From the IMG/VR virus record IMGVR_UViG_2718217807_000001: 64,000 nt of DNA, one strand, 5' to 3'. The notes below the pieces were generated by a model. It was not told the DNA's origin. It saw only the letters and a program-made list of their open reading frames with translations, and ran no database searches. Origin of the DNA: a virus. Taxonomy: Duplodnaviria > Heunggongvirae > Uroviricota > Caudoviricetes. Below are positions 595-26,998 of this stretch, piece by piece. The position numbers were made by a program, and so were the translations under genes. The stretch's first letter is position 1; each line of letters begins with the position of its first letter.

Positions 595-3556
595 CCGGTT
601 GCAGCGGCCGTAGCGGCCTGAACTTGCCCGCGCCGATCTTGGCGCTGCTGCGCCAGAGGTAATCGCCGGTCAGGTTGATGTGCTCCCAGCCGAGCGGCGA
701 CAGGTACTGCAACAGGCCGTCATCGACGGCTTGACCGTGGCCACGCAAGGCGTTCGCGGCCCGCTCCAGATAGACCGTGTTCCATAGCACGATGGCCGCC
801 GTCACCAGGTTGAGGCCGCTGGCCCGGTAGCGCTGCTGCTCGAAGCTGCGGTCGCGGATTTCCCCCAGGCGGTTGAAGAACACGGCGCGGGCCAGCGCGT
901 TGCGCGCCTCGCCTTTGTTCAGCCCGGCATGCACGCGGCGGCGCAGCTCGACGCTTTGCAGCCAGTCCAGGATGAACAGTGTGCGCTCGATGCGTCCCAG
1001 CTCACGCAGGGCGACGGCCAGGCCGTTCTGGCGCGGGTAGCTGCCAAGCTTCCTGAGCATCAGCGAGGCCGTCGCCGTGCCCTGCTTGATCGAGGTGGCC
1101 ATCCGCAGGATTTCATCCCAATGGGCGCGGACGTGCTTGATGTTGAGCGTGCCGCCGATCATCGGTTTCAACGCCTCGTAGGTGGCATCGCCCTTCGGGA
1201 TGTAGAGCTTGGTGTCGCCCAGGTCACGAATGCGCGGGGCGAAGCGGAAGCCCAGCAGGTGCATCAACGCGAAGACGTGGTCCGTGAACCCTGCCGTGTC
1301 GGTGTAGTGCTCCTCGATCCGCAGGTCGGATTCGTGATACAGCAGGCCGTCGAGCACGTAGGTCGAGTCGCGCACGCCGACGTTCACGACCTTGGTGTGG
1401 AACGGCGCGTACTGGTCGGAGATATGGGTGTAGAACGTCCGCCCTGGGCTGCTGCCGTATTTCGGATTGATGTGGCCGGTGCTCTCGGCCTTGCTGCCGG
1501 TGCGGAAGTTCTGGCCGTCCGACGATGACGTGGTGCCGTCGCCCCAATGCCCGGCGAAGGGATGTCGGAACTGCGCGTTGACCAGCTCGGCCAGTGCCGC
1601 CCCGTAGGTTTCGTCGCGGATGTGCCAGGCTTGCAGCCAGGCCAGCTTGGCGTAGGTCGTGCCGGGGCACGATTCCGCCATCTTGGTCAGGCCCAGGTTG
1701 ATCGCGTCGGCGAGGATCGTGGTCAGCAACAGGTTTTTGTCCTTGGCCAGGTCGCCTGACTTCAGGTGGGCGAAGTGCCGGGTGAAGCCCGTCCATTCGT
1801 CTACCTCCAGCAGCAATTCGGTGATCTTGACGTGCGGTAGGATCATCGCCGTCTGGTCGATCAGGGCCTGTGCGGTATCGGGCACCGCCGCATCGAGCGG
1901 CGTGATCTTCAGGCCCGACTCCGTGATGATGGCGTCCGGCAGCTCGTTGGCCAGCGCCATGCGGTTGACGGTGGCGAGCTGCGTTTCCAGCAGCGTCAGC
2001 CGGTCATGCAGGTACTGGTCGCAATCGGTGGCCACGGCCAGCGGCAATTCGCTGGCCTGCTTGAGGCTGGCGAATTTCGCGGGCGGCACCAGGTAGTCCT
2101 CGAAGTCCTTGAACTGGCGCGAGCCTTGCACCCAGATGTCGCCGGAGCGCAGCGCGTTCTTCAGCTCCGACAGCGCGCACAGTTCGTAGTAGCGCCGGTC
2201 GATGCCGGTGTCGGTCATCACCAGCTTCTGCCAGCGCGGCTTGATGAACTCGGTCGGCGCGTCGGTGGGCACCTTGCGGGCGTTGTCGCTGTTAATGCTG
2301 CGCAGCACCTCGATGGCGTCGAGTACGTCCTTGGCGGCGGGCGCGGCCCGCAACTTGAGCACGTCGAGAAATTCCGGCGCGTAGCGGCGCAGCGTGGCGT
2401 AGCTCTCGCCGATGCGGTGCAGGAAATCGAAGTCCTCGGGTTGCGCGAGCCGCTGCGCTTCGGTGACGCTCTCGGCGAAAGCATCCCAGGACATGACGGC
2501 CTCGATGGCGGCGAACGGATCGCGGCCCGCTTGCTTGGCCTCGATCAGCGCCTGGCCGATGCGCCCGAACAGCCGCACCTTGGCATTGATCGCCTTGCCG
2601 GATGCCTGGAACTGCTGCTGATGCTTGTTCTTGGCGGCATTGAACAGCTTGCCCAGGATGCGGTCATGCAGGTCGATGATTTCGTCGGTGACGGTGGCCA
2701 TGCCCTCGATGGCGAGCGCCACCAGGGTCGCGTAACGCCGCTGCGGCTCGAACTTCGCCAGGTCGGCGGGCGTCATCTGGCCGCCCTCGCGGGCGATCTT
2801 GAGCAGCCGGTTCTGGTGAACCAGCCGCTCGATGCCGGAGGGCAGGTCGAGCGCCTGCCACGCCTTGAGGCGTTCGATGTGTTCCAGCATGTGCCGCGAG
2901 TTCGGTTTGACCGGGGATTGCCGCAGCCAGGCCAGCCACGTCGTCTTGCCGTTGTCGCGGCGCTTGAGCAGATCGTCGAGGCGACGGCGATGCACGTCCG
3001 TCAGCGGCTCAGCCAAGGCGTCGTAGAGACGCCGGTTGGCGCGGGTAATCGCTTCGGCGCTCGCCCGCTCGACGGCGTTGAGGGCGGGCACAATGACCGA
3101 CTGCCGCCGCAGGTGCTCGATCAAGGCTCTGGCCAGCACGATGCCCTTGTCGGTTTGCATGGCCAGCTCGGTCAGCAACTGGACAGCCTGCCGGTAGTGG
3201 CCAATCGTGAACGGCTGGAAGCCGAACACCGTTTGCAGCTCGACCAGGTGCTCGCGTCGGGTCTGCTCACGCTGCCCGTACTCGTCCCAGCTTTCGATGC
3301 CGACCTTGAGCTGGTTGGCGACCAGTCTCAGCAATGGCGGGAACGGTGGCTCATCAGCGCCAAGGATGACGCCGGGAAAGCGCAGGTAGCAGAGCTGCAC
3401 CGCGAAGCCCAGCCGATTGGCCGGGCCGCGCCGCTGCCGGATGATGGAGAGGTCGCTTTCGCTGAACGTGTAGTGACGGATCAACTCATCCTTGGTGTCC
3501 GGCAACGCCAGCAGGCTTTCGCGCTCGGCGGCGGAGAGGATCGAACGGCGGGGCAT
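590..3556 (-). CDS. tnpA: Tn3-family transposase
   Basis: 988-aa ORF whose 3' end runs into IR-L. The length and position are typical of Tn3-family TnpA. Confidence 0.9.
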
Positions 3557-3708
3557 GCGGTTTCCTTCTTCTTGAAAACGTAGGTTTGTGACAAGCCCGC
3601 CAAGGCAACCGGCGCGGCACGGGAATCAAGGCATTGCGATTCTCGAAAATAGTTCTTGAAATTCTATTCTTGATTGCATATCATCTCAACGAGTTTCGAT
3701 AAGAAAGG
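3557..3708. promoter_or_regulatory. Divergent promoter region between tnpA and mntA-hepT. Contains the palindrome TTGTGACAA. Candidate operator or res-like site.
   Basis: 152-bp gap between divergent genes. Palindrome at about 3587. No resolvase subsite architecture could be verified by eye. Confidence 0.3.
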
Positions 3709-4005
3709 ATGCGCATGCGACCGTCTGTTGTGCTTGACATGAAGCGAAGCGCAGTGCGTGAAGCGGTAGGCCGCTTTCGCGCCGCGAACCCGCGCGTCTT
3801 CGGCTCGGTGCTGCATGGCACCGACCGGGATGGCAGCGACCTCGACCTGTTGGTCGATGCGCTGCCCGGTGCCACGTTGTTGGACTTGGGCGATTTGGAA
3901 GAAGAACTGAAATCGCTGCTCGGCGTTGACGTCGATCTGCTGACTCCCGGCGACCTGCCGCCGAAGTTCCGGGCCAAGGTGCTCGCGGAGGCGCAACCGA
4001 TATGA
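3709..4005 (+). CDS. mntA: Minimal nucleotidyltransferase (MNT) antitoxin
   Basis: GS-x9-DxD motif (FGSVLHGTDRDGSDLDLLV). About 98 aa. Overlaps the downstream HEPN gene by 4 nt. Confidence 0.75.
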   Translation: MRMRPSVVLDMKRSAVREAVGRFRAANPRVFGSVLHGTDRDGSDLDLLVDALPGATLLDLGDLEEELKSLLGVDVDLLTPGDLPPKFRAKVLAEAQPI

Positions 4006-4403
4006 GCGAGAACCGCCTGCCCGATTACCTCGACCACATTCAGCAGGCCGCAACCGATGCGCGCAGCTTCGTGGAAGGGATGGCCAAGGACGACTTCTTG
4101 GCCGACAAGCGCACCCAGCAGGCCGTCATCATGAGCCTGATCGTCATCGGCGAGGCGGCCACAAAGGTGATGGATGGCTACGTCGAGTTCACCCAGGCGC
4201 ATGCCGACGTGCCGTGGCGCAGCATGCGCAATATGCGTAATCGCATGGCTCACGGCTATTTCGACATCAACCTCGATGTGGTGTGGGAGACGGTACAGGA
4301 ATGGCTGCCGGCGTTGCTCCAGCAATTGCCCGCCGTGCGTCAGGATGCCGACGATGAAGACCGTAACGACAACTGTGAAAGAGGGATCTCCGATGACTGT
4401 TGA
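4002..4403 (+). CDS. hepT: HEPN-domain toxin (HepT/DUF86-like RNase)
   Basis: C-terminal RNRMAHGY motif (Rx4HxY). 133 aa. Translationally coupled to the MNT gene. Confidence 0.8.
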   Translation: MSENRLPDYLDHIQQAATDARSFVEGMAKDDFLADKRTQQAVIMSLIVIGEAATKVMDGYVEFTQAHADVPWRSMRNMRNRMAHGYFDINLDVVWETVQEWLPALLQQLPAVRQDADDEDRNDNCERGISDDC

Positions 4404-4749
4404 ATCGAGAATATTTTCTGTAGCCGAGTATGTTCAGCCGTCCGAAGGCGAGCCTATTCGTTCCGTTGTGCTTGAAACCCGAGACTCAATTATCGTGGTT
4501 TGGCATGTCCATCCCGGGCAGGAAATTGCGGCTCACATTCATCCTCACGGCCAAGACACGTGGACTGTTTTGTCGGGAATGGCTGATTACTTTCAGGGCA
4601 ATGGGATTGTTCGTGCCCTCAGGGAAGGTGAGATAGCCGTGGCAAGACCGGGCCAAGTGCACGGGGCGCGAAATACAGGTACCGAGCCATTTGTGTTAGT
4701 CTCGGTTGTGGCATCAGCCAATGCCGGTTTCGTATTGGCTGAGCGATAG
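4393..4749 (+). CDS. Cupin-domain protein
   Basis: Two His-containing cupin motifs (HVHPGQEIAAHIHPHGQDTW and PGQVHGARN). AGAGGG RBS ahead of the ATG at 4393. Confidence 0.55.
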   Translation: MTVESRIFSVAEYVQPSEGEPIRSVVLETRDSIIVVWHVHPGQEIAAHIHPHGQDTWTVLSGMADYFQGNGIVRALREGEIAVARPGQVHGARNTGTEPFVLVSVVASANAGFVLAER

Positions 4750-5003
4750 AGCCCAATCTCTGGAGTTGGTCCAATGAGCGGTCGGGGAGATAGGTAACAG
4801 ACATGCAGCGGACACGGCTGCTAAACCAGGTCGCAAACCTCCTTGCGTCGCAGCGTGCCGCAAGCGACGCGATCAATCGAATGGGGTCGGCATGAGACTG
4901 AACACCATCCAGTTCCCGACCGCGTAGCCGCCTGTCCTGCCGATCAGGTCTTGACCATCGACGCCTGGGATCAGTCCTGAATGTTCTTGGAGACCACTAC
5001 GTT

Positions 5004-5330
5004 ATGAGCCGCAGCCGCCGCAAAACACCCATCGTCGGGCACACGACCTGCGGCAGCGAGCGCGAGGACAAGAAGCTCTGGCATCAGCGCTGGCGCACCC
5101 GTGAGCGCACGGCGCTGACCAGCGCGTCGCCCGAAGCCCTGAGCGCCCATCTGCCCCTGCTGGAAAACCAGGCCAGCAGCGTCTGGTCGATGGGCAAGGA
5201 TGGCCGCTCCTACTGGCCCGTCAAGCGCCAGGCCGCCACGGCGGATCGCATCGCCAATCACAAGGGACGCAACCCGCAAGAACGCGCCTCCCTGAAAAAG
5301 CGCCTGCTGCGCAAGTGGATGAGCAAATGA
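5004..5330 (+). CDS. Hypothetical basic protein (transposon cargo)
   Basis: 108-aa ORF with high-GC codon usage. No recognisable motif. Confidence 0.35.
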   Translation: MSRSRRKTPIVGHTTCGSEREDKKLWHQRWRTRERTALTSASPEALSAHLPLLENQASSVWSMGKDGRSYWPVKRQAATADRIANHKGRNPQERASLKKRLLRKWMSK

Positions 5331-5827
5331 AGCTCTCCTTCCATCAGCACATTGCGCTGTTCTGGATGATCGGTGCTCCGGGCGTCTTCGCGCCCGTGAT
5401 CGAGAACGCCAAGCGGCCCGATGCCGGCGCCGTCATGGCGTGGGGTGTCGCGATCGTGGCGGTGATGATCCTCTTCACCCCTTTGCTGCTGCGCTGTCCA
5501 CCATTCCGGCGCTGGTATGGCCGGACGGATGCGCTGTCGGAGCGGCAGCGCCAGGCGCTTGCCGAGCGCGGCCTGCGCCGCTACTACCAGACCGCTTTCG
5601 ATGACGGCTACGTGCCCCGCGTGATGCCCTACGTGTGGCGCATCATCTGGACGGTCGGCGGGTTGATGGCTGTGACCGCCGTACTGCCTACCAACACCGG
5701 ACGGCCAGCCTTCGATGCCTTGGTGGTCTTCTCGACCTGGTATCCGATAGGCGTGATGCTGCTGGTTTTCGCGTCGAGGCCCCTTGGCCGGTTGATTCGC
5801 CAAAGAGCACAGGAGCGGCGGAAATGA
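5315..5827 (+). CDS. Hypothetical integral membrane protein (transposon cargo)
   Basis: 170 aa with three or four hydrophobic helices. The start overlaps the stop of the previous ORF. Confidence 0.45.
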   Translation: MDEQMKLSFHQHIALFWMIGAPGVFAPVIENAKRPDAGAVMAWGVAIVAVMILFTPLLLRCPPFRRWYGRTDALSERQRQALAERGLRRYYQTAFDDGYVPRVMPYVWRIIWTVGGLMAVTAVLPTNTGRPAFDALVVFSTWYPIGVMLLVFASRPLGRLIRQRAQERRK

Positions 5828-6195
5828 GCACGTCAACCATCGAGGCGCTGGCCAGCGCCTGGGCAAGGATTGCCGAGGAAGCGGAATTCCCCGCTGACTA
5901 CGAGGGGACTGCCACACCACAAGCGCATCGGGCTAGCGAAGCTATTCAGGAGCAGATTCGGGAGCGCATCGTCGCCACCAACGACATGCGGCTGTTCAGC
6001 CTGCTGCACCTGCTGGGTCAGGCGTCGCTGCGCATGGAGCAAGCGCTGTGGCCGGAGGATTACGAGCGGATGACGCGCGAGGTTGAGGAAGCCCTGCGGC
6101 AAGCCACCGACGCCAACGCCAGATCGTACACCCACGAAGAAGTGATGCAGGCGATGCAGGAACGCATCGACCGGGCGCGAGACAAGCCATGTTGA
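5824..6195 (+). CDS. Hypothetical protein (transposon cargo)
   Basis: 123-aa acidic, helical ORF. The start overlaps the upstream stop (ATGA). The end overlaps the tnpR start. Confidence 0.4.
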   Translation: MSTSTIEALASAWARIAEEAEFPADYEGTATPQAHRASEAIQEQIRERIVATNDMRLFSLLHLLGQASLRMEQALWPEDYERMTREVEEALRQATDANARSYTHEEVMQAMQERIDRARDKPC

Positions 6196-6746
6196 TTGGC
6201 TATGCGCGCGTCTCGACGCAGGATCAGAACCTGGAGCTGCAACGCGAAGCCTTGAGCAAGGCCGGATGTAAAAAGGTCTTCGAGGACAAGGTGAGTGGCA
6301 CGCGGGCAGACCGGCCTGGCTTGGCCAAGACGCTCGAAATGCTGCGCGAAGGCGATACTTTGGTCGTCTGGAAGCTCGACCGGCTGGGCCGGTCGGTCAA
6401 GCAACTGGTCGATCTGGTCGGCGATCTGCACAAGCACGGTGTCCAGTTCAGGAGCCTCACCGACTCCATCGACACCGGCACACCATCCGGGCGGTTCTTC
6501 TTCCACGTCATGGCGAGCCTTGCCGAAATGGAGCGCGAGCTGACCGTCGAGCGCACCCGCGCCGGGCTGGAAGTCGCCAAGCAGCTCGGCCGCAAAGGCG
6601 GCCGCAAGCCGAAGATGACCGACAGCAAGATCGAGTCGGCCAAGAAGCTGCTGGCCAGCGGGGTGCCGCCCAAGGACGTGGCCAAGAACCTCGGCGTGTC
6701 CATTCCGACGCTGTACCGCTGGGTGCCAGCCTCCACGCACGCTTAG
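6189..6746 (+). CDS. tnpR: Serine recombinase (resolvase)
   Basis: N-terminal GYARVSTQDQ with catalytic Ser. C-terminal HTH. 185 aa. The gene ends inside IR-R. Confidence 0.85.
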   Translation: MLIGYARVSTQDQNLELQREALSKAGCKKVFEDKVSGTRADRPGLAKTLEMLREGDTLVVWKLDRLGRSVKQLVDLVGDLHKHGVQFRSLTDSIDTGTPSGRFFFHVMASLAEMERELTVERTRAGLEVAKQLGRKGGRKPKMTDSKIESAKKLLASGVPPKDVAKNLGVSIPTLYRWVPASTHA

Positions 6747-6779
6747 CGTGCTTTATTTTCCGTTTTCTGAGACGACCCC
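6742..6779. repeat. Terminal inverted repeat IR-R, 38 bp
   Basis: Reverse complement of 557-594 with 38/38 identity. Confidence 0.9.
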
Positions 6780-6784
6780 TGAAT
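6780..6784. repeat. Target-site duplication TGAAT (right copy)
   Basis: Identical to 552-556. Confidence 0.8.
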
Positions 6785-8134
6785 ACGCTGAAGGTCCAGA
6801 GTAACCCGTGGATCGACGGTACTTTCGAAACCTATGACAACAATCAGCAGTTGGGCGGCAGCACTGCGGTTGTAACGACGGACTTCAAGAGCACCGGCAG
6901 CAAATGTCTGAAAGTTATTCGTCCGGCCAATACTGGTGGGAATGCAGACAAGACGATCGGCTCCTATTCTGCGGTGCGCCAGAGCGCGAAATATCGCGTT
7001 GAGTTTTGGGCTATGATGCCGGCAAGTGAAGCCCCGCCGTCTGGCTGGTCTGTGGCCGTTGGTCTGCACTCGATCAACAAAGATGGTGCGAACGATTGGC
7101 AGGGCATTACGTTCAACGAGTCAGGCCTTGGCGCACGCGATCAGTGGGTCAAGTTCAGTGGCGTGCTGAAGCTGGGTCCGAGCGTAACCCGTAGCCATGT
7201 ATGGGTTTCTACTCGTGGTCAGAATGGCTCCAACACACCTGGATACGCGGCGTACATTGATGATTTCGTCATTACCGATATCACTGATGCTGCGGATGCA
7301 CAGGCTACGGCGGATGCAAACGCAACGGCAATCTCATCGTTGCAGACGAAGGTCAGCGACATCGACGGAAAAGTGACAGCCCAAACGTCGCAACTGTCTT
7401 CCATGCAGTCGAAGGTTGATGGGGCAACGTCGAAGGTTGATCAGCTGTCTAAGACCATATCTGACAGCCAGAGCACACAGGCGTCTTTAAACACGAGTCT
7501 TCAGTCTCAGATCAGTGCTCAGGCGTCGGCCAACATTGCAAATCAGGCTGATCTGAATAGCACTATGACCAGTGTGGCAACCATAAAGTCGACTCAGGCC
7601 ACTCAGGCCACTCAGTTGAGTGCCGTTGCTAAGAGCCAGACCGACATGACCGCGACTCTGAATAACCAGACCGCATCTATCCAGGTACTTCAGGAAGCCG
7701 TTTCAAATAACGACTCGCTGAACAGTACCTGGATGGTGAAGATGGAAACGAACAGCGCGGGACAGAAGTATGCGGCCGGCATTGCTCTCGGTGTCGACGG
7801 CAAAAGTCTGCAAAGCCAGTTCTTAGTTCAGGCTGACAGGTTCGCTTTAATCAATACCTCGAATGGCAGCACCACGACGCCGTTTGTTATCGATAATGGC
7901 GTTACCTATATGAACGCGGCTTACATCAAAGACGGCTCTATTACCAACGCCAAGGTAGGGGATCTTCAGTCGAGCAACTACTCCAGCGGCCAGTCTGGTT
8001 GGAGGATCGGTAAAAACGGCACGATGGAGATTAACGGCACCGGGTCGGGAAGTGCCAGAACGACCATCTCCAATGGTAAGATTGAAGTTTACGATTCGAA
8101 CAACCGTCTCCGAGTGAGAATGGGTATTTTCTAA
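6785..8134 (+). pseudogene. Phage tail fiber / host-specificity protein, 3' portion. Continuation of the frame interrupted at 556.
   Basis: Carries a second CBM-like repeat (YIDDFVITDITD) and long coiled-coil S/T/Q repeats. C-terminal block: FLVQADRFALINTSNG ... NAAYIKDGSITNAKV. Confidence 0.6.
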
Positions 8135-8181: not shown

Positions 8182-9726
8182 ATGAGTATGTATGAAGTAG
8201 GCACCGTAACCGGCGCCGCAAATCAGGCGAAAGTGACCGGTGTAACGACTAAGTGGTCGCAGACAGCTCTTGGTATTCAACAAGGTTCAATACTGGTTGT
8301 CTACCGCAGCGGCAATGCTGATCTTTACGCGATTAAGTCCGTAGACAGTGACACTCAGATAACGCTAACCAGAAACATCACCACCGCGTTCTCTGGCGCG
8401 TCCTATGGCATTATCACGTCAGAGACAGCCAGCACTTCAGCTTTTGCCAATCAACTCTCCAGCGCGTTCTCTCTTTGGCGTAGTGTCGTTGAGGGCTGGT
8501 CAGCGGCATTAACGGGAAGCGGGAATATAACGTTAACAGACCCCATGACCGGCAAGTCTGTCACTGTGCCAGCGATTAAAGGGATGGCCAGCATTGCCGG
8601 TGGGAATAATTTTACTGGAACACAAAGTGTGGATAGCGACGACGCCGGCTTTATTCTCGGCAAGAACGCTGATATAGGGCTGGTTAAGAAAAACGGAACA
8701 TGGGGAAAACTCATGGTCGGGAAATCTACACGATTCTCTGTTGTCAAAAGCGCTAATGACCGGATATCTGCCACGGATGTCCAGACTGAAATATTCGGTG
8801 TTAATAGCTCTGGCGATGTTGATATTTTGGGGAATATTAATGGTAAGAAAAACGCCAACTTCACGGATGGAGGTGTTAGCGCCAGAAGCATTGAGCTTTC
8901 CTATACAACACCGTTTATCGACTTCCATTATGGGAATAGCACGGCAGACTATACTCACCGAATTATTGCGGATGACCCGGTCGCATTAGGGTTCGAGTGC
9001 AGTATTCGAGTTGCCAAAAATATTCGCTCTCAGCAGGGTATCAAAGCCGATTTATATGTGCGTGCCGCTGGTCGTGCCGGCATCATAGCGCAGTACGACA
9101 ATGATCCCTCTGTGAATTTCGGGGAAATAAGGGTTGCTCCGCAATTAACCACTCAATTTGCTACGATAGGGGCGGACTCGAACGGTCAGGCAGGGGGAAA
9201 TTTTTGGTTTGAAGAGCATGTCGGAAGCAACCACCGTCTCGTTACCCAAGTCAAAGGGTATGGCGCACCCGTACAATACTGGCATCATCGCAGCGACGGA
9301 ATGATCTGGAATAGTCAGCGAGGTGATGTAGCGTGGGCCGCAACTTCAGATAAAAACCTCAAGCATGATATTAAGCCCACAGATGGCATGAAGTCGTTGA
9401 ATAATATCAATGCCATGAAACTAGTTACTTTCATCTATAACGATGACGAGAGCGGGCGCCAGCGTCGAGGTGTGATTGCTCAGCAGCTTCAGAAAATTGA
9501 CCCGTGCTACGTGAAGGTGAGTAAAGGTGTGGTAAACCACCCAGCCATAAAGGATGATGAAGGTAATGAAATTGAATCAGAACATCAGGAGATAATTGAA
9601 AAACTTGTACTGGACTCCAATCCTTTGTTGATGGACGCCTTAAGTGCTATCCAGGTATTGTCGCGGGAGATTAGCGAACTCAGAGCTGAGAACAGAGATT
9701 TACGCTCATTTGTTCATTTTGAATAG
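8182..9726 (+). CDS. Tail fiber / tailspike protein with C-terminal intramolecular chaperone (peptidase S74-like) domain
   Basis: 514 aa. C-terminal ~120 aa (NLKHDIKPTDGMKSLNNINAMKLVTFIYNDDE...GVIAQQLQKIDP) matches the autoproteolytic chaperone module of endosialidase-type fibers. AGGAAG RBS. Confidence 0.65.
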   Translation: MSMYEVGTVTGAANQAKVTGVTTKWSQTALGIQQGSILVVYRSGNADLYAIKSVDSDTQITLTRNITTAFSGASYGIITSETASTSAFANQLSSAFSLWRSVVEGWSAALTGSGNITLTDPMTGKSVTVPAIKGMASIAGGNNFTGTQSVDSDDAGFILGKNADIGLVKKNGTWGKLMVGKSTRFSVVKSANDRISATDVQTEIFGVNSSGDVDILGNINGKKNANFTDGGVSARSIELSYTTPFIDFHYGNSTADYTHRIIADDPVALGFECSIRVAKNIRSQQGIKADLYVRAAGRAGIIAQYDNDPSVNFGEIRVAPQLTTQFATIGADSNGQAGGNFWFEEHVGSNHRLVTQVKGYGAPVQYWHHRSDGMIWNSQRGDVAWAATSDKNLKHDIKPTDGMKSLNNINAMKLVTFIYNDDESGRQRRGVIAQQLQKIDPCYVKVSKGVVNHPAIKDDEGNEIESEHQEIIEKLVLDSNPLLMDALSAIQVLSREISELRAENRDLRSFVHFE

Positions 9727-9808
9727 TTAGTAAGTATTTACTTACTTTAATTCAAGAGATATGGTATAACCGGGTGGATTTAGGTTTGACAGTCATGGAG
9801 GATTAACA

Positions 9809-10123
9809 ATGTCAAACGAAACGCCCGGTGTGAGCCACAAGGAAGTGGAGCGCATCGCTCAAATTGTCGCGAGAGAAGTCCTGCAGGGGCTTCGCGATGA
9901 GGTTGGGGAAGAGGTGGATAAGCGACTGAAAGCTTACCTGGGAGACATGACCGCGACCCAGCACAGCATTCAGCATGCCAACCTGGACAAATTACTGAAC
10001 CGAATGGATGCCATTTCAAGCGGCTTTTTCGGTGGGGTAGTGTCTAAGGTCACTTCTTTCCTGATCACCGCCTTGCTGCTGGGACTGGCAGCGTATGGCG
10101 TAAAAAGCGGTATTGGAAACTAA
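9809..10123 (+). CDS. Small membrane protein, possible holin
   Basis: 104 aa. Single C-terminal TM helix. Sits immediately upstream of the lysis genes. Confidence 0.3.
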   Translation: MSNETPGVSHKEVERIAQIVAREVLQGLRDEVGEEVDKRLKAYLGDMTATQHSIQHANLDKLLNRMDAISSGFFGGVVSKVTSFLITALLLGLAAYGVKSGIGN

Positions 10124-10133
10124 GGGGAAAAGG

Positions 10134-10826
10134 ATGACTCCAAGAGGAATACGCAACAACAACCCAGGCAACCTTGATAACACGAATCCGTGGCAAGGTC
10201 TGGTTAACAACCCGGCAGAGCCTCGCTTTGCCACCTTCAAAGATCCAACGTGGGGTGTGCGTGCGCTGGCCGTCACACTCATCACCTACCACGACAAGCG
10301 GAAGGCGAAGGACGGTTCTCGCATCGACACGATCCGCGAGGTCGTTGAGCGCTGGGCGCCGCCGGTGGAGAACGACACTGAAGCGTATGTGCAAGCTGTG
10401 GCAAAAGCCGTCGGTGTCTCCCCGGATATGGAAATCGACCTGCATCAGTACGAAATTATGCGCCCGGTCGTGGAGGCGATTATTCGCCATGAAAACGGCA
10501 AAGGCCCACTGCGTACTGAGAACACCTGGTACAACCTGGATGTGATCGAAGAGGGCCTTCGTCGCGCCGGTGTTGTTAAGCAGGTGAAGATTGCGGCGTC
10601 CATCCCTGTGACGAAGGAAACTGCTGGCGCAACGATGACAGCGGGCATTGGTTTGGCGCAGCTGGCCGATGTCGCTCCACAAATCAGTACCGCTATGGAT
10701 AAGGCCCAGGGCAACATTACCAGCGGCGATACGATTCGAATCGTGTTTGGTGTGGCGACGATAGCGGTGGCGGTTTTCATTGCCATCTCCCAGGTGCGGA
10801 AATATCAGCGAGGGGTGGTGCGATGA
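10134..10826 (+). CDS. Putative endolysin-like cell-wall hydrolase with C-terminal membrane anchor
   Basis: N-terminal GIRNNNPGNL motif, recurrent in phage lysis and virion proteins. C-terminal TM helix. Located between the holin-like and spanin genes. Confidence 0.4.
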   Translation: MTPRGIRNNNPGNLDNTNPWQGLVNNPAEPRFATFKDPTWGVRALAVTLITYHDKRKAKDGSRIDTIREVVERWAPPVENDTEAYVQAVAKAVGVSPDMEIDLHQYEIMRPVVEAIIRHENGKGPLRTENTWYNLDVIEEGLRRAGVVKQVKIAASIPVTKETAGATMTAGIGLAQLADVAPQISTAMDKAQGNITSGDTIRIVFGVATIAVAVFIAISQVRKYQRGVVR

Positions 10827-11074
10827 TTGAGGGCTTAATCGCCCGATTTAAAGCGTTCGTGATGACGGCTTCGGCCGTCATTGCTGTGCTTTTCGGAGCG
10901 TATGTGTTAGGTGGTCGCTCGGCCAGGCGCTCAATGGAGATCCAGTCGCAGCAAGAAGAGAACAAGCGATTAAAGACTACCGTTGAGGTAAAGAATGAAA
11001 CGAATGATAAAGTCAGGCACATGGACGATGATGCCGTGGATAGTGAGCTTGCTGCTAACTGGATGCGTGATTAA
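10823..11074 (+). CDS. Inner-membrane spanin (Rz-like)
   Basis: 83 aa. N-terminal TM helix. Periplasmic coiled-coil with charged residues. The start overlaps the upstream stop. Confidence 0.6.
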   Translation: MIEGLIARFKAFVMTASAVIAVLFGAYVLGGRSARRSMEIQSQQEENKRLKTTVEVKNETNDKVRHMDDDAVDSELAANWMRD

Positions 11075-11228
11075 GCCACAGCAAGGGCTTTTGTTTTGCG
11101 AGACGGCCAGCCCAATCTATCTCAGCAAGGAAGACAAGTTGACCCAAGAATCAAAACGTCAAATACTGGCACATGATATCGTCGGTGAGCGCGTTTGTGG
11201 GTGGGGGCACTCCAATCGCACCAGTTAA
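10995..11228 (+). CDS. Outer-membrane spanin lipoprotein (Rz1-like), nested in the +1 frame at the 3' end of the i-spanin
   Basis: Lipobox LLLTGC after a signal peptide. 77 aa. Embedded/overlapping architecture typical of Rz/Rz1. Confidence 0.6.
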   Translation: MKRMIKSGTWTMMPWIVSLLLTGCVIKPQQGLLFCETASPIYLSKEDKLTQESKRQILAHDIVGERVCGWGHSNRTS

Positions 11229-11231
11229 TGG

Positions 11232-11264
11232 AAAACGCCCCATAATTGCTTAGGGGCGTTTTGT
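11232..11264. terminator. Bidirectional rho-independent terminator
   Basis: Hairpin AACGCCCC-N11-GGGGCGTT flanked by an A-run and a T-run. Lies between convergent genes. Confidence 0.6.
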
Positions 11265-12452
11265 CTACTCGTTGTAATATACTAGATATTGGCATTCAAC
11301 TTTTATGGCTCTTCGCAGAAAAAGAGTCGCATTGTTTACATATTCCTTTTCTGATGCATTGATGCGATTTTTCAGACCATGCACAATTGCAGAGCGTAGT
11401 TCATAAGCTTTTTTAAGTTGTTTTTTTATTTCCTCTCTATCGTCCATGCCTTTGCCGATAAGATAAGAACACCTATCAGACAATGTTTGTGTTATACCGA
11501 CACCTTGTTCCCTTTTGTCGCCTAACAATGCTTCTAGGCCCATGCATATTTGAATGAATGACATGGTTTCATCCATAACCATCTGCGAGTTCATATACCA
11601 ATCCATTGCGGATTTTATATACATGGCTGATTCAGAACTATCACTTATCAATGAATTGATAAATGATAATTTTTCTATTGAAAGGTGTTTTTTATTTTCA
11701 TTGATCTTTAGGTCGTCTAGGAAATTAGATATTTGCAACGGCAGTACGTAATCTTCAGTTATTTGATCGTGGCTTTTGTTTTTTATTTTTGCTGTCAGTA
11801 TTGGAATGCTCTTGGTCCTTCCAGGAAGGGTTTCTTCAAAGCGATACTTATGTATTAATAGTTTGCTCTTGGTTGTGAATATTCTGTTGGTCATGAAAAC
11901 GTATAAAAAAACATTAAAGTCTTGTAGATATGGCTTAATCTCATGCGTGTTGTTTTTATGTGTTAGATACCCACTTCCGGATAATCTTAAATATCTATTT
12001 GTTATTAGATTAAATGGGGATTCATCATGGCCAAGACCAATTCCTAGATCCAATACTTCAATTTTATTAGGGTCGCCATTAAATGTTGGGATGTCTAGGT
12101 TGTGTAGCGGGATTGCGACTTTGTATTCGTGTGGCAATGCTGTAAAGTAACCGAAAAGATAATCGATTAATTCAAGCTTTTCATCTTTGGTTAATTTAAT
12201 GTTGTCATCTAATAATGGAGTAAATAAATTTCTTTTTAAACTAAATGATGTTACAGCATCAAAGAATGCCCAAATTGCTGTTTGTTCATCAATAGGTGGA
12301 GGGGTTTTATTATTTGGCTTTAATTTGTCAGTGAGAGTTTTAAATTTCTTTTGGGTTCCTTCTCTAAACGGTGTTCCATTGACTTTTACCACGACTTCGT
12401 CGACCAAGTCAGAAAAAATAATTTTGATGCTTTTGACCTGCTCAGGGTGCAT
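11265..12452 (-). CDS. HEPN-domain protein, Abi-like. AT-rich moron.
   Basis: 395 aa. C-terminal ELRSAIVHG (Rx4H) within a predicted helical ~110-aa domain. GC far below the backbone. Opposite strand to its neighbours. Confidence 0.5.
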   Translation of the reverse strand: MHPEQVKSIKIIFSDLVDEVVVKVNGTPFREGTQKKFKTLTDKLKPNNKTPPPIDEQTAIWAFFDAVTSFSLKRNLFTPLLDDNIKLTKDEKLELIDYLFGYFTALPHEYKVAIPLHNLDIPTFNGDPNKIEVLDLGIGLGHDESPFNLITNRYLRLSGSGYLTHKNNTHEIKPYLQDFNVFLYVFMTNRIFTTKSKLLIHKYRFEETLPGRTKSIPILTAKIKNKSHDQITEDYVLPLQISNFLDDLKINENKKHLSIEKLSFINSLISDSSESAMYIKSAMDWYMNSQMVMDETMSFIQICMGLEALLGDKREQGVGITQTLSDRCSYLIGKGMDDREEIKKQLKKAYELRSAIVHGLKNRINASEKEYVNNATLFLRRAIKVECQYLVYYNE

Positions 12453-12600
12453 TTGTTCGGCCTCGGAATTTTCAATTATTTGTGTAGATTATAACTTTTG
12501 TATTGAGTTCAGTCATTGACCTTTTTCGGTAGTCGGCATAACATTACACACATAAGAAAACATCTTGTTTTCAAAACTAAAGACGGTACAAGGCGAAACA

Positions 12601-13266
12601 ATGGATACCAGACTCATCATAGTTGGTGGGACGAAGGGCGGACCGGGTAAGTCCACCATCGCCCAGCAGGTAGCAGCCTGTTTGCAGCTCAAAAAGAAGA
12701 AGAAGGTTCACGTCACCGATATCGACATCCAGCGTACTACGACAACCTGGTGTGAGGATCGTCGCGGCAACAAGAAACTCGAACTGCTCCCTTTTGCCTT
12801 CGTCGGCAACGAAATAATCAAACACCTTCAATCGCTCAACGGTCGTTATGAATACATCGTAGTTGACGCCGGCGGTTTCGATTCTGAAATACAGCGTGAG
12901 GCCATGCTGATAGCTGACGCCATACTGATACCTCTTCGGCCTAAACGCAGGGACCTGAAGTCCTTGCGCGACATCGACCCGGTCCTTGAGAGCGTTAAAG
13001 CCGAGAACCCAGAGGTTCAGATCCGCGTAGTGATGAACCAATGTCCATCGCTTCCATCCCAGGTGTCTCGCATACTCGCATCAAAAGAAATTATCGAGTC
13101 GTTTGGTATCGAGCCAGTGCCAGTTAACATCTACAACCGAAATATCTACGACGATGCGGAAGAGGCTGGTCGCTCTGTTTTTGAAATGAAAGGCAAAGAA
13201 CGAGACAAGAAAGCTGAAGACGAAATTGAAGAGTTAGTTGATTATCTTATTAGTTTAGAGGGTTAG
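12601..13266 (+). CDS. parA: ParA-family partition ATPase (type Ib)
   Basis: Deviant Walker A GGTKGGPGKST. 221 aa. Confidence 0.8.
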   Translation: MDTRLIIVGGTKGGPGKSTIAQQVAACLQLKKKKKVHVTDIDIQRTTTTWCEDRRGNKKLELLPFAFVGNEIIKHLQSLNGRYEYIVVDAGGFDSEIQREAMLIADAILIPLRPKRRDLKSLRDIDPVLESVKAENPEVQIRVVMNQCPSLPSQVSRILASKEIIESFGIEPVPVNIYNRNIYDDAEEAGRSVFEMKGKERDKKAEDEIEELVDYLISLEG

Positions 13267-13270
13267 TGTC

Positions 13271-13645
13271 ATGAAAATGGGAAAAATGGGCGATCTCGCC
13301 AAGCGTACTGTTGAAGAGCAACCAGTTCAGGATACTGAAGCAAAAGCCTCTAATTCGCCAATGCGTTCACCTGTACGCCCGCAGGGTCGGCCTACCCGCG
13401 GGAAGTCCAGCATCAAAAGCCGCACAATGAGCATCGAAGACGAGTTCATCAGCCTTATCTCTGTCATGGAGAACGTCGACCGCTGGAACCGCTTTACTCG
13501 CTCTGACGTCATTCGCGCCGCCATCATGAATCTGGCAAGCGAGTCACCTAAGCAGATCGCGGAAACCATCGCCGTACTTCGCGAAACACCAGCCTCTGAA
13601 GCTGAGATGCGCGGCGAACAAATTCGCCGTGAGCTGGAGCAGTAA
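13271..13645 (+). CDS. ParG/ParB-like small partition partner protein
   Basis: 124 aa, immediately downstream of parA. Basic disordered N-terminus and helical C-terminus, as in ribbon-helix-helix centromere binders. Confidence 0.45.
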   Translation: MKMGKMGDLAKRTVEEQPVQDTEAKASNSPMRSPVRPQGRPTRGKSSIKSRTMSIEDEFISLISVMENVDRWNRFTRSDVIRAAIMNLASESPKQIAETIAVLRETPASEAEMRGEQIRRELEQ

Positions 13646-13726
13646 CATCGGCTTGTACCCCTTAATTAAAAGATTTTAAAAAGAGCTTTAAATACTATCT
13701 GGAGCCAGGTTAATTAAAGCACCAGA

Positions 13727-13750
13727 ATACCAACAGAATAAGGCGCTTTT
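13727..13750. terminator. Putative terminator hairpin
   Basis: AATAAGGCGC-TTTT-GCGCCTTATT, followed by a T-rich stretch. Confidence 0.4.
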
Positions 13751-13973
13751 GGCGCCTTATTCTTTGTGTCTGGGGTGTTATTAAAAGACCTTGCTCTGGT
13801 AGTTATTATATATCTCTCTTTTGTTTTTAAATATTATGGGGTACGAAGGAATCTCTATAAGGTTCCGGTTCAAGCCTCACCCAACCCCCTAAACAACCTG
13901 TCTTTTCCGCTTTCAAAACCCCACGCCAGCGTTTATCATCTGCGTCAAATAGTAAGTAAGAGCTTATTTAGGA

Positions 13974-14720
13974 ATGAAGCGATTATTAAACACACCAGAC
14001 GGCGAGAAGTACGAGTTCATGCGAGAGATGTCGACCTCCGACATGGACAGGTGGGTATCCGAGAACATTGGACTGTCCCGCTGCGCCGGTGAGACTGAAC
14101 TGTTTGCGACGAAGTGGTTCGACTACCGCAACATGCACCCACTGGTCGCTACCTGCCTGTTCTCTGAAATCTATAAGGTCGAGTACGCACGCATCATGCT
14201 CACGCACGGCCGCGAAGACTTCCAGCGAGCACCATACCGCATTGGTCTGAAGCGTGTTGCGTATCAGGATCACGGAATGGGCGTTAAGACGTCCCTTTGG
14301 CGTGCTCGTCAGTTTGCGGATAAGTATTGCTGTTCGTATGACTATTACATCTCAACGGTACTCAGCATCGCGGCGCAGCGTCTATGGGCGAATCTCCCAC
14401 GACCCCAGCATCTTTGGCAAGACGACCTTGTCGAGATATTCGAGCAGAAACTGGCCCGTCGCTCACAGATCCGCATCGACGATAGTATCTTCAGCTATCA
14501 CAACATGCCGCAGCTGGTGGCCCCGGAAATGCAGAAAGATTACTGCATGTGGGTTATCCGGCACATCGATGCGATGAAACCATCCTCTCGCGTGAATGGC
14601 CTCCTGTCAGCCGTATACCTACGAAAGCTGATACCTGAAGTAGTGGCCGCGAAACGCTATCCCAGCCTGATTGAAGACGCGAGAGATCTGTATTTGAGCG
14701 CCTACGAAGACGAATCATAA
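13974..14720 (+). CDS. Hypothetical protein
   Basis: 248-aa ORF. No recognisable motif. Confidence 0.45.
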   Translation: MKRLLNTPDGEKYEFMREMSTSDMDRWVSENIGLSRCAGETELFATKWFDYRNMHPLVATCLFSEIYKVEYARIMLTHGREDFQRAPYRIGLKRVAYQDHGMGVKTSLWRARQFADKYCCSYDYYISTVLSIAAQRLWANLPRPQHLWQDDLVEIFEQKLARRSQIRIDDSIFSYHNMPQLVAPEMQKDYCMWVIRHIDAMKPSSRVNGLLSAVYLRKLIPEVVAAKRYPSLIEDARDLYLSAYEDES

Positions 14721-14758
14721 TTTAGAAAACAAGTTGTTTAAAACAATAAGGAAAGCAC

Positions 14759-16120
14759 ATGACCACTACCTCTTCAGCGCTTGAAACTCCTGTCCACACA
14801 GGTCGAGCGCTTTCAGAAGAGTTCGACGCTGGGTTTGAAGACCGCCTAGCTTCGTACTACTGCCGTGACAGAGAGTTCCTGATGCGTGCTGGGGATCTTG
14901 TTCTACCTGAACAGTTCTCCAATAAAGCAAATGGGTATCTGGTTAACGTCGTCGCCGGCTATTTCCGTTCGTATAAAAGTTCGCCGTCGAAGGAATACAT
15001 CATCGACATGATTAAAGAAGCGAAGAAGCGCGGGAAAATCCGTGAAGAGTTCGTGCCTGAAATCGTCGATGCGATGAAGCGAATCCTTGGGGAAAAGCTG
15101 GAAGACACCGGCTACATGATTGACCGTGTTGTGACATTCGCGCGTTCGGTTGCTTTCGATGATGCGTTTATCAAGGCAGCAGAGCTGAAGGAGAAAGGCG
15201 AGTTCGAACGAGCGATGCAGGTCATGCAGAAGGTGGATCTGGTTGGCGCGTCCGATATGGATGATGTTTACAGCTTCTATGAGCGCTCAGGTGAACGTCA
15301 CGAGCGTCGTGAGTATGAAGCGTCAGACGACTACATCCCGAATAGCATCACAACCGGCATCCCATTGCTGGATAAAATGCTCCACCAGAAAGGCTGGGGG
15401 CGTAAAGAGCTGGTGCTGTTTATGGGCTTCGCGAAGTCTGGTAAATCGACGGCCATGGGTGAGTTCGGCATCAATGCCACGCTGAAAGGTCATAACGTCC
15501 TGTATGTCTCACTGGAGGTACATAAAGACATCCTTTCAGATCGCTGGGACGCCCGTATCTCTGAAACGGAAATGTCAAAGCTGATCGAGCGTCGTGATGA
15601 CATTGCGGAAAAGCTGCGTGCCGTTGGTGCTGATGGAAAAATTGGTGATATGTGGATTGTTGAGCGTCGCGCCAACACATTCTCACCTGCAGACCTGGAT
15701 CGCCTGTTAAACAACATGAAAGCAAACGGCATGATACCAGACATGGTCATCGTCGATTACGCCGACCTGATGCGAGCCACTACACCGACTAAAGACCCTC
15801 GGACTGATGTGAAGGACATCTATACCGATTTGCGTGCTGTTATGGATAAGCACGATGTAGCCGGTATGACAGCATCCCAGACCAACCGCGAAGGTGGTGC
15901 GGCGGAAGTAGCAACGATGATGCACGCCGCGGATAACATCGAGAAAGTGCGTATCTGTGACCTGATTATCTCTATCAACAAAACCGAAGAGGAAGAGGCT
16001 AAAGGCGAAGCTCGTTTGTTCTTTGCTGGTTCACGTAACCAGAAAGGCGGGATAAGTCTACGGGTTCTTCAGGATCTGGAGCAGATGCGGTTTATCAAGC
16101 GGATTATTGACGTGCTTTAA
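14759..16120 (+). CDS. DnaB-like replicative helicase
   Basis: RecA-fold C-terminal domain with Walker A GFAKSGKST and Walker B IVDYADLM. 453 aa. Confidence 0.7.
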   Translation: MTTTSSALETPVHTGRALSEEFDAGFEDRLASYYCRDREFLMRAGDLVLPEQFSNKANGYLVNVVAGYFRSYKSSPSKEYIIDMIKEAKKRGKIREEFVPEIVDAMKRILGEKLEDTGYMIDRVVTFARSVAFDDAFIKAAELKEKGEFERAMQVMQKVDLVGASDMDDVYSFYERSGERHERREYEASDDYIPNSITTGIPLLDKMLHQKGWGRKELVLFMGFAKSGKSTAMGEFGINATLKGHNVLYVSLEVHKDILSDRWDARISETEMSKLIERRDDIAEKLRAVGADGKIGDMWIVERRANTFSPADLDRLLNNMKANGMIPDMVIVDYADLMRATTPTKDPRTDVKDIYTDLRAVMDKHDVAGMTASQTNREGGAAEVATMMHAADNIEKVRICDLIISINKTEEEEAKGEARLFFAGSRNQKGGISLRVLQDLEQMRFIKRIIDVL

Positions 16121-23053: not shown

Positions 23054-23163
23054 CCACAGTCGTAGCCTCTTCGGAGGCTACAGCTGAAAGCTTTATAAGC
23101 TATTGGGCTTTCAGCTGTACTTCGACCCACAGCACTCTTTTTTTGCTTCACACCCCCCCCCCA

Positions 23164-23190
23164 AAGGAGCCGCAAGGCTCCTTTTTTATT
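23164..23190 (+). terminator. Rho-independent terminator
   Basis: GGAGCC-GCAA-GGCTCC followed by TTTTTTA. Preceded by further hairpins at 23062-23119. Confidence 0.65.
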
Positions 23191-23262
23191 GCCAAATTTA
23201 ACTAAGTGTATCAATATGAAACAGCATATCAGTCGGGATTTTTATAAAAAATAAGGAAAATT

Positions 23263-23733
23263 ATGTTAAGGCGTGCGGTGCTTTTATTACCTATTTTGTT
23301 CTCGATACCTGCTGCAAATGCTTTGGATGCGAATTATGAAAACTGTCTAAAGAAAACATCTAGCAGAGGGGATGTAGATGGATTCAGAAGCTGCGTAATT
23401 AGCCACATTAACAAGGGGAATACAAACAGAGTATTGCCCAATGGGTTAATTTTAAAAAATATTAGCCATTCAAACGGATTTTTAATAAAGAATTTGAAGA
23501 TAGAAGGCATAAAGTATGAGAAAGGTGATCCAGACTCCGAGCGTGCAAAGGCTAGTTTTATTGAATCTGTAGAAAGCACAAATGAAAGAGCTATTCAGAT
23601 TCATGCATACTGTGTAACTCTCGCAAAAGAATACAGAAAAATATTTAATGATGGCGCAATGATAAGATACTACGACCAGCGTGACAGGGTCATATACACC
23701 TCTTATGTGAAAAGTCGAGAATGTAATCCCTAA
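23263..23733 (+). CDS. Secreted hypothetical protein (AT-rich moron)
   Basis: Signal peptide ending ANA|LD. 156 aa. Low GC. Confidence 0.45.
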   Translation: MLRRAVLLLPILFSIPAANALDANYENCLKKTSSRGDVDGFRSCVISHINKGNTNRVLPNGLILKNISHSNGFLIKNLKIEGIKYEKGDPDSERAKASFIESVESTNERAIQIHAYCVTLAKEYRKIFNDGAMIRYYDQRDRVIYTSYVKSRECNP

Positions 23734-23812
23734 ACCCAGAAATAAGTAATGACTTACCTACTAATTAACTATATGATTCCTTTCTAAACATAACCATTTG
23801 AAGGGAATCATA

Positions 23813-24349
23813 ATGGATTCATCAAACAAGCAAACGCTTAAACTGCCGAAATACCAAAGCATCAAAATCGTCGAAGCGGCCGAGATTTTCAAAATCGAAA
23901 AAAAGACGCTAATGGTGTCTTTTCGCAAGCATGTGGCCAAAATTGAAGTCGACCAGTCTTATCTAGATAAACACAAGCCGGAAGTTGGCGGATATTTTGT
24001 TCGCTACGAAGACGGCTACGAATCCTTTTCTCCAAAGGGGCCATTTGAAAGCGGTTATTTGTCGGTCGATCTGGGAGAGTTCTTCCCCGACGTAGAATTA
24101 CCATTTTCTTACGCTCTGGAAGCATTGAAGGAAGGCGTTGCTGTCGCCCGGAAAGGCTGGAACGGAAAGGCTATGCACCTGCGCCTGGTCGATAGCAAGC
24201 ACTACGACGTTGGCAATGGAATTGCTCGCGACCTGGAGCTGGCATCATGGATCGGTATGAAGACGGCAGACGGAAAATTCGTACCGTGGCTGGCATCCCA
24301 GACTGATATTCTGGCCGAGGATTGGGTGATTTTGGGGATGGCTCCATGA
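23813..24349 (+). CDS. Hypothetical protein
   Basis: About 178-aa ORF. Confidence 0.45.
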   Translation: MDSSNKQTLKLPKYQSIKIVEAAEIFKIEKKTLMVSFRKHVAKIEVDQSYLDKHKPEVGGYFVRYEDGYESFSPKGPFESGYLSVDLGEFFPDVELPFSYALEALKEGVAVARKGWNGKAMHLRLVDSKHYDVGNGIARDLELASWIGMKTADGKFVPWLASQTDILAEDWVILGMAP

Positions 24350-24848: not shown

Positions 24849-24880
24849 CAATAAGGGGCCAACTGGCCCCTTATTGTTAT
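24847..24880. terminator. Perfect 13-bp stem hairpin (ACAATAAGGGGCC-AACT-GGCCCCTTATTGT), likely a terminator
   Basis: Lies immediately after the glutaredoxin stop. Confidence 0.55.
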
Positions 24881-26856: not shown

Positions 26857-26868
26857 TAGCTGATTGAA

Positions 26869-26994: not shown

Positions 26995-26998
26995 TTTC

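Follow-up and report, generated by a model that had tools for sequence, protein, structure and literature searches.

A stand-alone HEPN-domain gene in a cargo slot of SSU5-related phage-plasmids, a candidate abortive-infection gene of an uncharacterised family

HepS (PMC13043305), DARNA and ApeA are single-protein HEPN anticodon nucleases that abort infection, and some of them are carried by prophages. The trigger is a tail protein for HepS, SSB-bound single-stranded DNA for DARNA and deoxydinucleotides for ApeA. The HEPN superfamily to which they belong is defined by a helical bundle of two α-hairpins and an Rx4-6H motif with a polar residue following the arginine, most commonly N, D or H; a further acidic residue is found upstream, typically within E-x3-[KR] (PMC3710099).

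The gene described here lies in a stretch of viral DNA of 64,000 nucleotides (IMG/VR record IMGVR_UViG_2718217807_000001), referred to here as the window. Located between the lysis cassette and the partition gene parA is an open reading frame for a protein of 395 residues, antisense to the flanking genes, which are all on the plus strand (Table 1). The original prediction, made from the sequence letters and a list of open reading frames, had described an antisense gene in an AT-rich trough at just this place, and both the flanking genes and the base composition agree with it. GC content is 0.32–0.35 over positions ~11300–12500 as against ~0.50 in the flanks, making this the GC minimum of the 64-kb window at cassette size (0.348; window mean 0.497; z = −2.6). 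The encoded protein is WP_047719672.1 in RefSeq, where it bears the product name ‘HEPN domain-containing protein’, and is 100% identical to the CDS in NZ_CP011594.1; a literature search for the accession found nothing. The gene order of the lysis cassette, holin/endolysin/Rz/Rz1, is the same in the annotations of SSU5 and Cyrano.

Forming the left boundary of the cassette is a GC-rich hairpin that is kept in all sister elements, and within it a terminator scan gives a minus-strand match at 11255..11238. It is probably a bidirectional terminator serving both the lysis operon and the HEPN gene. At the opposite end, two promoter-like sites lie back to back, one facing the HEPN gene and the other facing parA; as promoter-like sites in the region do not exceed chance (4 found, with 4.8 expected from shuffled sequence), the promoter evidence is weak.

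Table 1. Features of the HEPN-gene cassette and its surroundings in the window.
Feature	Position	Strand	Basis or remark
HEPN gene, CDS, 395 aa	11265..12452	−	ATG start, stop codon 11265-11267; ORF list
N-terminal region, residues 1-252	11697..12452	−	
C-terminal domain with predicted HEPN fold, residues 253-395	11268..11696	−	
R353-S-A-I-V-H358 codons, Rx4H catalytic signature of HEPN RNases	11379..11396	−	Read from sequence
Variable cassette, 1,287 bp, GC 0.348	11263..12549		Gene plus 97 bp upstream; blastn junction mapping against L002-L005
GC-rich hairpin CGCCCC-N11-GGGGCG	11230..11262		T-runs on both strands; left boundary of the cassette
Putative RBS GAGG	12461-12464	−	8 nt before ATG; read from sequence
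Putative sigma-70-like promoter ATGACT-17-TATAAT	12516..12488	−	Consensus scan, 10/12 matches
parA-side promoter-like site	12516..12544	+	Back to back with the putative promoter of the HEPN gene
Lysis cassette overall	9809..11228	+	Upstream context of the HEPN gene
Holin-like gene	9809-10123	+	ORF list
Endolysin	10134-10826	+	78% identical to Salmonella phage SSU5 endolysin
Rz-like i-spanin gene	10823-11074	+	ORF list
Rz1-like o-spanin (lipoprotein) ORF	10995-11228	+	Overlaps the Rz-like gene
parA partition ATPase, divergent	12601-13266	+	Pfam AAA_31, MipZ, VirC1, CbiA and ParA matches; RefSeq annotation

Positions 9000–15000 of the window are 100% identical to the Klebsiella oxytoca plasmid pCAV1099-111 (NZ_CP011594.1) and to two sister plasmids, and share 80–95% identity with about 30 non-mobilizable Klebsiella plasmids, mostly of ~108–112 kb. 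Plasmids of the pCAV1099-111 type are SSU5-related phage-plasmids (PMC7969092). In blastn comparisons, backbone homology with the sister phage-plasmids ends at 11262 and is back at 12550; the cassette enclosed contains nothing beyond the HEPN gene and the 97 bp upstream of it, and has room for one gene only. Four sister elements share these junctions and differ in what lies between them. The slot is empty in L003 (78 bp); in L002 it holds a 1,426-bp cassette encoding a TacA antitoxin (Pfam E = 2e-25), a GNAT toxin and a 69-aa ORF; in L004 it holds a 1,071-bp cassette with a 263-aa protein matching Pfam MtlR (1e-8) and, weakly, HEPN_RiboL-PSP; and in L005 it is occupied by an allele of the HEPN gene at 62% identity. 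Found in the same slot are also a KacT-type toxin–antitoxin pair in phage Cyrano and two hypothetical genes in SSU5. MtlR is itself a HEPN-superfamily protein (PMC3710099). The original prediction had suggested looking at the position of the gene in related phage-plasmids: alleles and homologs sit in the same slot in Klebsiella, Cronobacter and Enterobacter elements, the Cronobacter and Enterobacter homologs at ~30% identity.

Cargoes of the slot with measured composition are all AT-rich (GC 0.32–0.41), and all cargoes except the two genes of SSU5 run antisense to the backbone. In the handful of slot-bearing elements inspected, the cargoes are toxin-like or HEPN proteins only. Variable presence at a fixed site, deviant GC content and a terminator hairpin, all expected of a moron in a hotspot, are found here, together with a weak promoter-like site. 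On the best explanation, the HEPN gene is an accessory cassette (‘moron’) that stands alone and reached SSU5-related elements by horizontal transfer, entering a conserved hotspot between the terminator of the lysis operon and the promoter of parA. Hotspots in P2 and P4 temperate phages (PMC9122126) are alike in their fixed backbone site, precise junctions and alternative AT-rich cargoes with expression signals of their own; the Rz/Rz1 terminator-to-parA promoter hotspot of the SSU5 supergroup is not described in PMC7969092.

The AlphaFold2 model of the 395-residue protein (pLDDT 80, pTM 0.81) comprises an N-terminal region of four helices (residues 3–104) followed by a mixed α/β subdomain (108–250), and a C-terminal domain with predicted helices at residues 255–270, 274–291, 295–308, 320–332, 336–357 and 366–394. 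The Rx4H motif is placed at the end of helix 336–357, ahead of the long final helix. The top structural matches of the C-terminal domain are HEPN proteins, including the HepT toxins of HEPN–MNT pairs (for example, PDB 7ae2 and 5yep), with the sacsin HEPN, AbiV and Las1 at lower ranks. Modelled alone, the N-terminal 252 residues match neither a HEPN protein nor a CARF or other nucleotide-sensor fold, and no known family or fold was found for residues 1–252; nor was a DNA-binding domain found in the 395-residue protein by Pfam or by the N-terminal fold search. A single weak match of the N-terminus to Csn2-like 3zth (E = 0.076, PDB profile search) was treated as noise.

Searches with the sequence of the protein gave nothing significant in Pfam, NCBIfam or PADLOC, and 67 homologs gave nothing significant in Pfam or PADLOC. 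HEPN_Apea is the only HEPN family of Pfam that recurs at E ≤ 5, in three of the 67 members (best E = 0.13) and not in the query, whose sole PHROG match is a family of unknown function (E = 0.0097). Three family profiles found nothing relevant among PDB sequences, and a Foldseek search of the whole model against the PDB returned no match at E ≤ 0.001. As there is no family match at the sequence level, the HEPN call rests on fold and motif, and on these grounds the C-terminal ~140 residues are a HEPN domain: the model shows the helical fold, and the sequence has Rx4-6H with a polar residue, S354, after the arginine. The upstream acidic residue, E307, is at least 90% conserved, but its context, G-L-E-A-L-L-G (E-x3-G), is non-canonical.

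The original prediction had read ELRSAIVHG as the signature of a helical HEPN domain of ~110 residues, behind an N-terminal region with no motif that could be named. The motif, the helical fold and the nameless N-terminus all stand, and the domain is larger than had been thought, at ~140 residues. A match to a HEPN or Abi family had also been anticipated; it is seen in the structural matches of the C-terminal domain, but not at the sequence level in Pfam, NCBIfam, PADLOC or PDB sequences. The prediction had staked itself on the motif falling within a HEPN fold and on the homologs being something other than structural proteins: the motif closes helix 336–357 inside the six-helix domain, and no homolog is a structural protein.

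A word-indexed search found only 9 relatives of the protein. An exhaustive profile search of cluster representatives, with clusters at the 50% identity level, found 3,912 at E ≤ 1e-3, 1,229 at E ≤ 1e-10 and 287 at E ≤ 1e-30, most of the last set being full-length proteins of 380–450 aa. Across an alignment of 67 diverse members with 20–30% identity to the query, G161, W285, R339, R353, H358, G359 and E386 are invariant, and P107, A282, C303, E307, G311, T321, L324, D326, R327, C328, Y350, S354, V357 and L379 are conserved in at least 90%. R353-x4-H358 is also invariant in 22 C-terminal domains. Because R353, H358 and G359 do not vary in 67 homologs as distant as this, the Rx4H is not a chance match.

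The two parts of the protein evolve at different rates. Values of dN/dS between alleles are 0.09–0.28, indicating purifying selection on both halves, with 0.21–0.28 in the N-terminal half versus 0.09–0.13 in the HEPN half. Klebsiella alleles share 51–71% identity in the N-terminal part versus 79–94% in the HEPN part, and across the family the median identities are 17% versus 35%; the N-terminal part thus diverges about twice as fast. A faster N-terminus joined to a conserved HEPN domain is the pattern expected of a variable sensor attached to a conserved effector, and suggests such an arrangement here. Members of the family reside mostly in bacterial chromosomes of several phyla rather than in phages. 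The family is carried by 12 IMG/VR contigs, one of which, N15/lambda-like, has a 402-aa homolog as an antisense insert of GC 0.34 within a structural region of GC 0.55–0.58; no member was found among the INPHARED phages.

Genomic neighbours were compared at 32 chromosomal or MAG loci from Gamma-, Beta- and ‘Delta’-proteobacteria, Nitrospirota, Nitrospinota, Bacteroidota and others, each of which (32/32) has one full-length member of ~400 aa. Clustering of the neighbours reveals no gene family common to more than three loci, and MNT or other nucleotidyltransferases are absent from the 25 most frequent Pfam families of the neighbouring ORFs. At the window locus, neither tandem repeats nor an Rfam RNA were found. 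A two-gene toxin–antitoxin system or an RNA antitoxin is disfavoured, since there is no conserved neighbour, no repeat and no Rfam match.

Evidence on a role in defence is indirect and comes, besides mobility, the uneven evolution of the two parts and the precedents of HepS, DARNA and ApeA, from neighbourhoods and from an independent machine-learning prediction. When 257 neighbouring ORFs were scanned with Pfam and PADLOC, most proved to have housekeeping functions, and enrichment in defence was only modest; among them are integrases, transposases, a Mu portal, one type I restriction–modification system, PD-Lambda-2, AriA, MADS components and DpdF. The Edaphovirga homolog adjoins an integrase and a CAP12-PCTIR_TIR-domain protein, and the homolog on an E. 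mori plasmid is near genes for NACHT and large P-loop NTPase proteins. Such neighbourhoods are suggestive of defence, not decisive. A full-length family member, WP_156480093.1 (E = 1.4e-68 to the family profile), is listed in the DefensePredictor supplement as a ‘predicted novel defense gene’ with log-odds of 13.7, the strict cutoff being 4; its nearest known system is the HEPN of ApeA (HHblits probability 91%, coverage of 13%, corresponding to the catalytic core). The motifs of the family are absent from the DefensePredictor files of cloned and tested systems. The overall validation rate in that study was 45%, and higher with higher score. Context and this independent prediction together make the gene a candidate for the abortive-infection or exclusion function that the original prediction had proposed.

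We consider it reasonably probable that the protein is a single-protein abortive-infection RNase of the ApeA, HepS and DARNA kind, representing a new family. Expression would take place in the plasmid or lysogenic state, driven by the gene’s own promoter; the orientation of the gene and its own putative promoter beside parA suggest lysogenic-state expression rather than expression with the late genes. The N-terminal ~250 residues, presumably a sensor or regulatory part, would hold the nuclease in check until they detect a trigger, some sign that another phage or mobile element has infected the cell. As in other HEPN enzymes, the HEPN domains would dimerise, creating or uncovering a composite RNase site that needs no metal and is built from two R353-x4-H358 motifs. 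Cleavage of RNA, the likeliest target being tRNA anticodon loops by analogy with ApeA, HepS and DARNA, would lead to growth arrest and aborted infection, a defence phenotype that would protect both the population of lysogens and the phage-plasmid residing in it.

A further-reaching reading, to which we give somewhat less than even chances, takes the family to be uncatalogued single-protein immune sensors, with this gene as its founding phage-plasmid-borne example and the N-terminus as a new phage-sensing module, its fold with no relative in the PDB, that controls a HEPN RNase. An SSU5-like element would then have to avoid triggering its own nuclease at induction, as is the case with HepS and Gifsy-1, and the hotspot alleles (100/79/73/62/31% identity) would be the trace of an arms race for the specificity of the trigger.

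The surroundings of the gene could also call to mind plasmid addiction: the TacA/GNAT modules (KacAT-type) occupy the same slot of sister elements, next to parA, and HepT toxins of HEPN–MNT pairs are among the best structural matches. The protein would in that case be a toxin acting in post-segregational killing or under stress, and neutralised in cis by its N-terminus or by an antitoxin that has escaped recognition. The cassette, however, has one gene, the 32 loci show neither a conserved neighbour nor a recurring MNT, RNA-antitoxin-like repeats and Rfam matches are lacking at the locus, and many homologs are chromosomal, off plasmids. Post-segregational killing is moreover impossible without a labile antitoxin, and it is for want of an antitoxin that we regard an addiction toxin as unlikely. 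A weapon of counter-defence or of competition between elements, degrading cyclic-oligonucleotide signals in the manner of Csm6 or the RNAs of host or competitor in favour of the element’s own lytic cycle, would use the same predicted nuclease. Here the N-terminus, with no CARF or other nucleotide-sensor fold, the distribution of the family, mostly in chromosomes of several phyla rather than in phages, and an orientation and putative promoter that suggest lysogenic-state expression all argue the other way, and make this reading very improbable.

The presence of an MtlR-like protein in the same slot of NZ_CP065827 raises a different prospect, that of a non-catalytic HEPN protein which binds RNA or regulates phage-plasmid or host genes, as some HEPN families, MtlR included, are regulatory (PMC3710099). 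Regulatory HEPN proteins usually have a degraded motif (PMC3710099), whereas in this family the catalytic arginine and histidine are invariant and accompanied by conserved S354 and E307, and the protein has no DNA-binding domain. A regulator of this kind is disfavoured by the invariant catalytic residues, and we see only a slim chance for it. That the reading frame is a chance product of AT-rich DNA, where long open reading frames are common and the promoter-like sites do not exceed chance, or a decaying remnant, has next to no probability. The family counts thousands of homologs, with the 287 representatives at E ≤ 1e-30 mostly full length; each half has a dN/dS far under 1; the AlphaFold2 model is confident; and the motif residues are invariant. 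A chance or non-functional ORF is refuted by these conservation data.

The HEPN name in RefSeq and the defence prediction for a family member by DefensePredictor were already known. The present analysis contributes an account of how large the family is and which anatomy it conserves, an N-terminal region that appears to be novel, and the definition of the SSU5-supergroup hotspot together with its alternative toxin or HEPN cargoes. Phage-plasmids of the SSU5 type occur commonly in clinical Klebsiella, Enterobacter, Cronobacter, E. coli and Salmonella, and a cargo gene that aborts infection by other phages would, if the proposal is true, affect the outcome of phage therapy and competition among mobile elements in those hosts. 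As a large, broad and uncatalogued family of single genes with a high DefensePredictor score, it offers a cheap and well-defined candidate for validation and, potentially, a new trigger-sensing domain. The slot between spanin terminator and parA is a practical place in which to mine accessory, toxin or defence genes of this phage-plasmid supergroup.

Among the closest known systems, ApeA (Gao et al. 2020; PF18739) is likewise a single polypeptide with no partner, a homology-less N-terminus and a C-terminal Rx4H HEPN RNase. ApeA differs in its length of ~580 aa, in its N-terminal, Mid and split-HEPN domains with insertions, and in the position of its catalytic arginine near residue 500. The 395-residue protein is shorter, with a compact six-helix HEPN domain, and its similarity to the ApeA HMM is not significant (best E = 0.13); neither the query nor the 67 homologs match the ApeA models of PADLOC. 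HepS, the ‘HEPN Solo’ of the Gifsy-1 prophage (PMC13043305), is a stand-alone HEPN protein of <250 aa with R100-H105; it assembles as a tetramer, and the tail-tip protein J activates it. By comparison, the protein described here has an extra N-terminal region of ~250 residues, conserved throughout the family, and is not detectably related to HepS in sequence. In DARNA/PD-T7-3 the order of domains is reversed, with the HEPN domain (R117-H122) at the N-terminus and an all-helical, Pds5-like sensor domain; the PADLOC PD-T7-3 model matches neither the query nor any of the 67 homologs.

Other HEPN proteins also differ. Those of AbiF/Abi2 type belong to systems resembling type III toxin–antitoxin modules, and here there is no Abi_2 match in Pfam and no repeat RNA antitoxin upstream. 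HepT toxins, from type II/VII toxin–antitoxin pairs, are minimal proteins of 130–150 aa, encoded beside an MNT antitoxin that AMPylates them, whereas the 395-residue protein has a large N-terminal extension and neither an MNT gene nor any other partner. Csm6 and Csx1 HEPN RNases have an N-terminal CARF domain and an association with CRISPR loci, features that the 395-residue protein lacks. The protein is best assigned to a family that is new and uncharacterised, of the known kind of abortive-infection RNases that join sensor and HEPN domain in a single protein, but outside ApeA, HepS and DARNA.

SSU5-related phage-plasmids and phages share a hotspot for accessory genes, a slot flanked by the Rz/Rz1 terminator hairpin and by the parA promoter. 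Its junctions are precise when the window is compared with sister elements and phages. The slot is occupied by alternative cargoes, namely the HEPN gene, TacA/GNAT or KacT toxin–antitoxin pairs, or an MtlR/RiboL-PSP-like HEPN protein; in SSU5 it holds two hypothetical genes, and in some elements it contains nothing.

Occupying the slot of one sister phage-plasmid, in a position and orientation identical to those of the HEPN gene, is a protein annotated as an 'MltR family transcriptional regulator' (WP_117269941.1). It matches Pfam MtlR (1e-8) and, weakly, HEPN_RiboL-PSP (0.0017), so that the slot hosts a second protein of the HEPN superfamily, unrelated to the first. Rather than a regulator, this protein could be a further candidate for a toxin or defence role.

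Two promoter-like sites stand back to back between the HEPN gene and parA: the minus strand carries ATGACT-17-TATAAT, and the plus strand TTGACC-17-TAACAT. Statistically weak as they are, these sequence matches suggest that the HEPN gene and parA could have one divergent control region in common.

Table. Coordinates of the slot and of the features discussed
Feature	Locus	Interval	Strand	Remarks
Slot	window	11263-12549		HEPN gene
Slot	L002 (sister phage-plasmid)	2765-4190		TacA/GNAT
Slot	L003 (sister phage-plasmid)	2584-2661		empty
Slot	L004 (sister phage-plasmid)	2045-3115		MtlR-like
Slot	L065 (further locus)	4604-6099
Slot	L066 (further locus)	4577-5725
WP_117269941.1	L004 (NZ_CP065827.1)	2120-2911	-	263 aa
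Promoter-like sites	window	12488-12544	both	position 12516 common to both
HEPN gene homolog	L059 (IMGVR_UViG_3300011157_000006)	5707-6915	+	402 aa
Additional AT-rich troughs	window	37254-38540, 28719-30005, 24871-26157, 26588-27874, 23087-24373, 62709-63995		GC 0.38-0.41
Site-specific integrase	window	about 27764-28798		annotation; in troughs
HTH regulator	window	about 28788-29093		annotation; in troughs
SSU5-type endolysin	window	10134-10826	+	RefSeq name 'membrane protein'
Rz1 o-spanin-like ORF	window	10995-11228	+	77 aa; out-of-frame overlap with Rz-like gene; lipoprotein signal

The homolog in the lambda-like viral contig L059 is an antisense insert (GC 0.34) directly adjoining N15/HK225-like head–tail genes (GC 0.55–0.58), and its location inside or at the edge of a structural module is an uncommon moron site. 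Adjoining the chromosomal homolog of Edaphovirga cremea (QOVA01000005.1; loci L014/L010) are a tyrosine integrase, a CAP12-PCTIR_TIR-domain protein and a transposase. The plasmid homolog of E. mori pHS08-091 (locus L012) has a 1,213-aa P-loop NTPase and a NACHT protein close by. Each of these two neighbourhoods resembles a small defence island.

Six further AT-rich troughs elsewhere in the window could mark more islands of accessory or regulatory genes. Where annotation was checked, they contain hypothetical proteins, small minus-strand ORFs, the integrase and the HTH regulator.

Upstream of the slot, the C-terminal segment of the endolysin is hydrophobic (…IVFGVATIAVAVFIAISQV…) and a Pfam search with this protein gave no match. 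The enzyme could represent an endolysin type so far undescribed, one tethered to the membrane. The 77-aa ORF, with its lipoprotein signal (…LLLTGC…), looks like an Rz1 o-spanin; it is absent from the annotation in the RefSeq record of pCAV1099-111, the Klebsiella oxytoca plasmid matching the window, and its equivalents are annotated in SSU5 and Cyrano.
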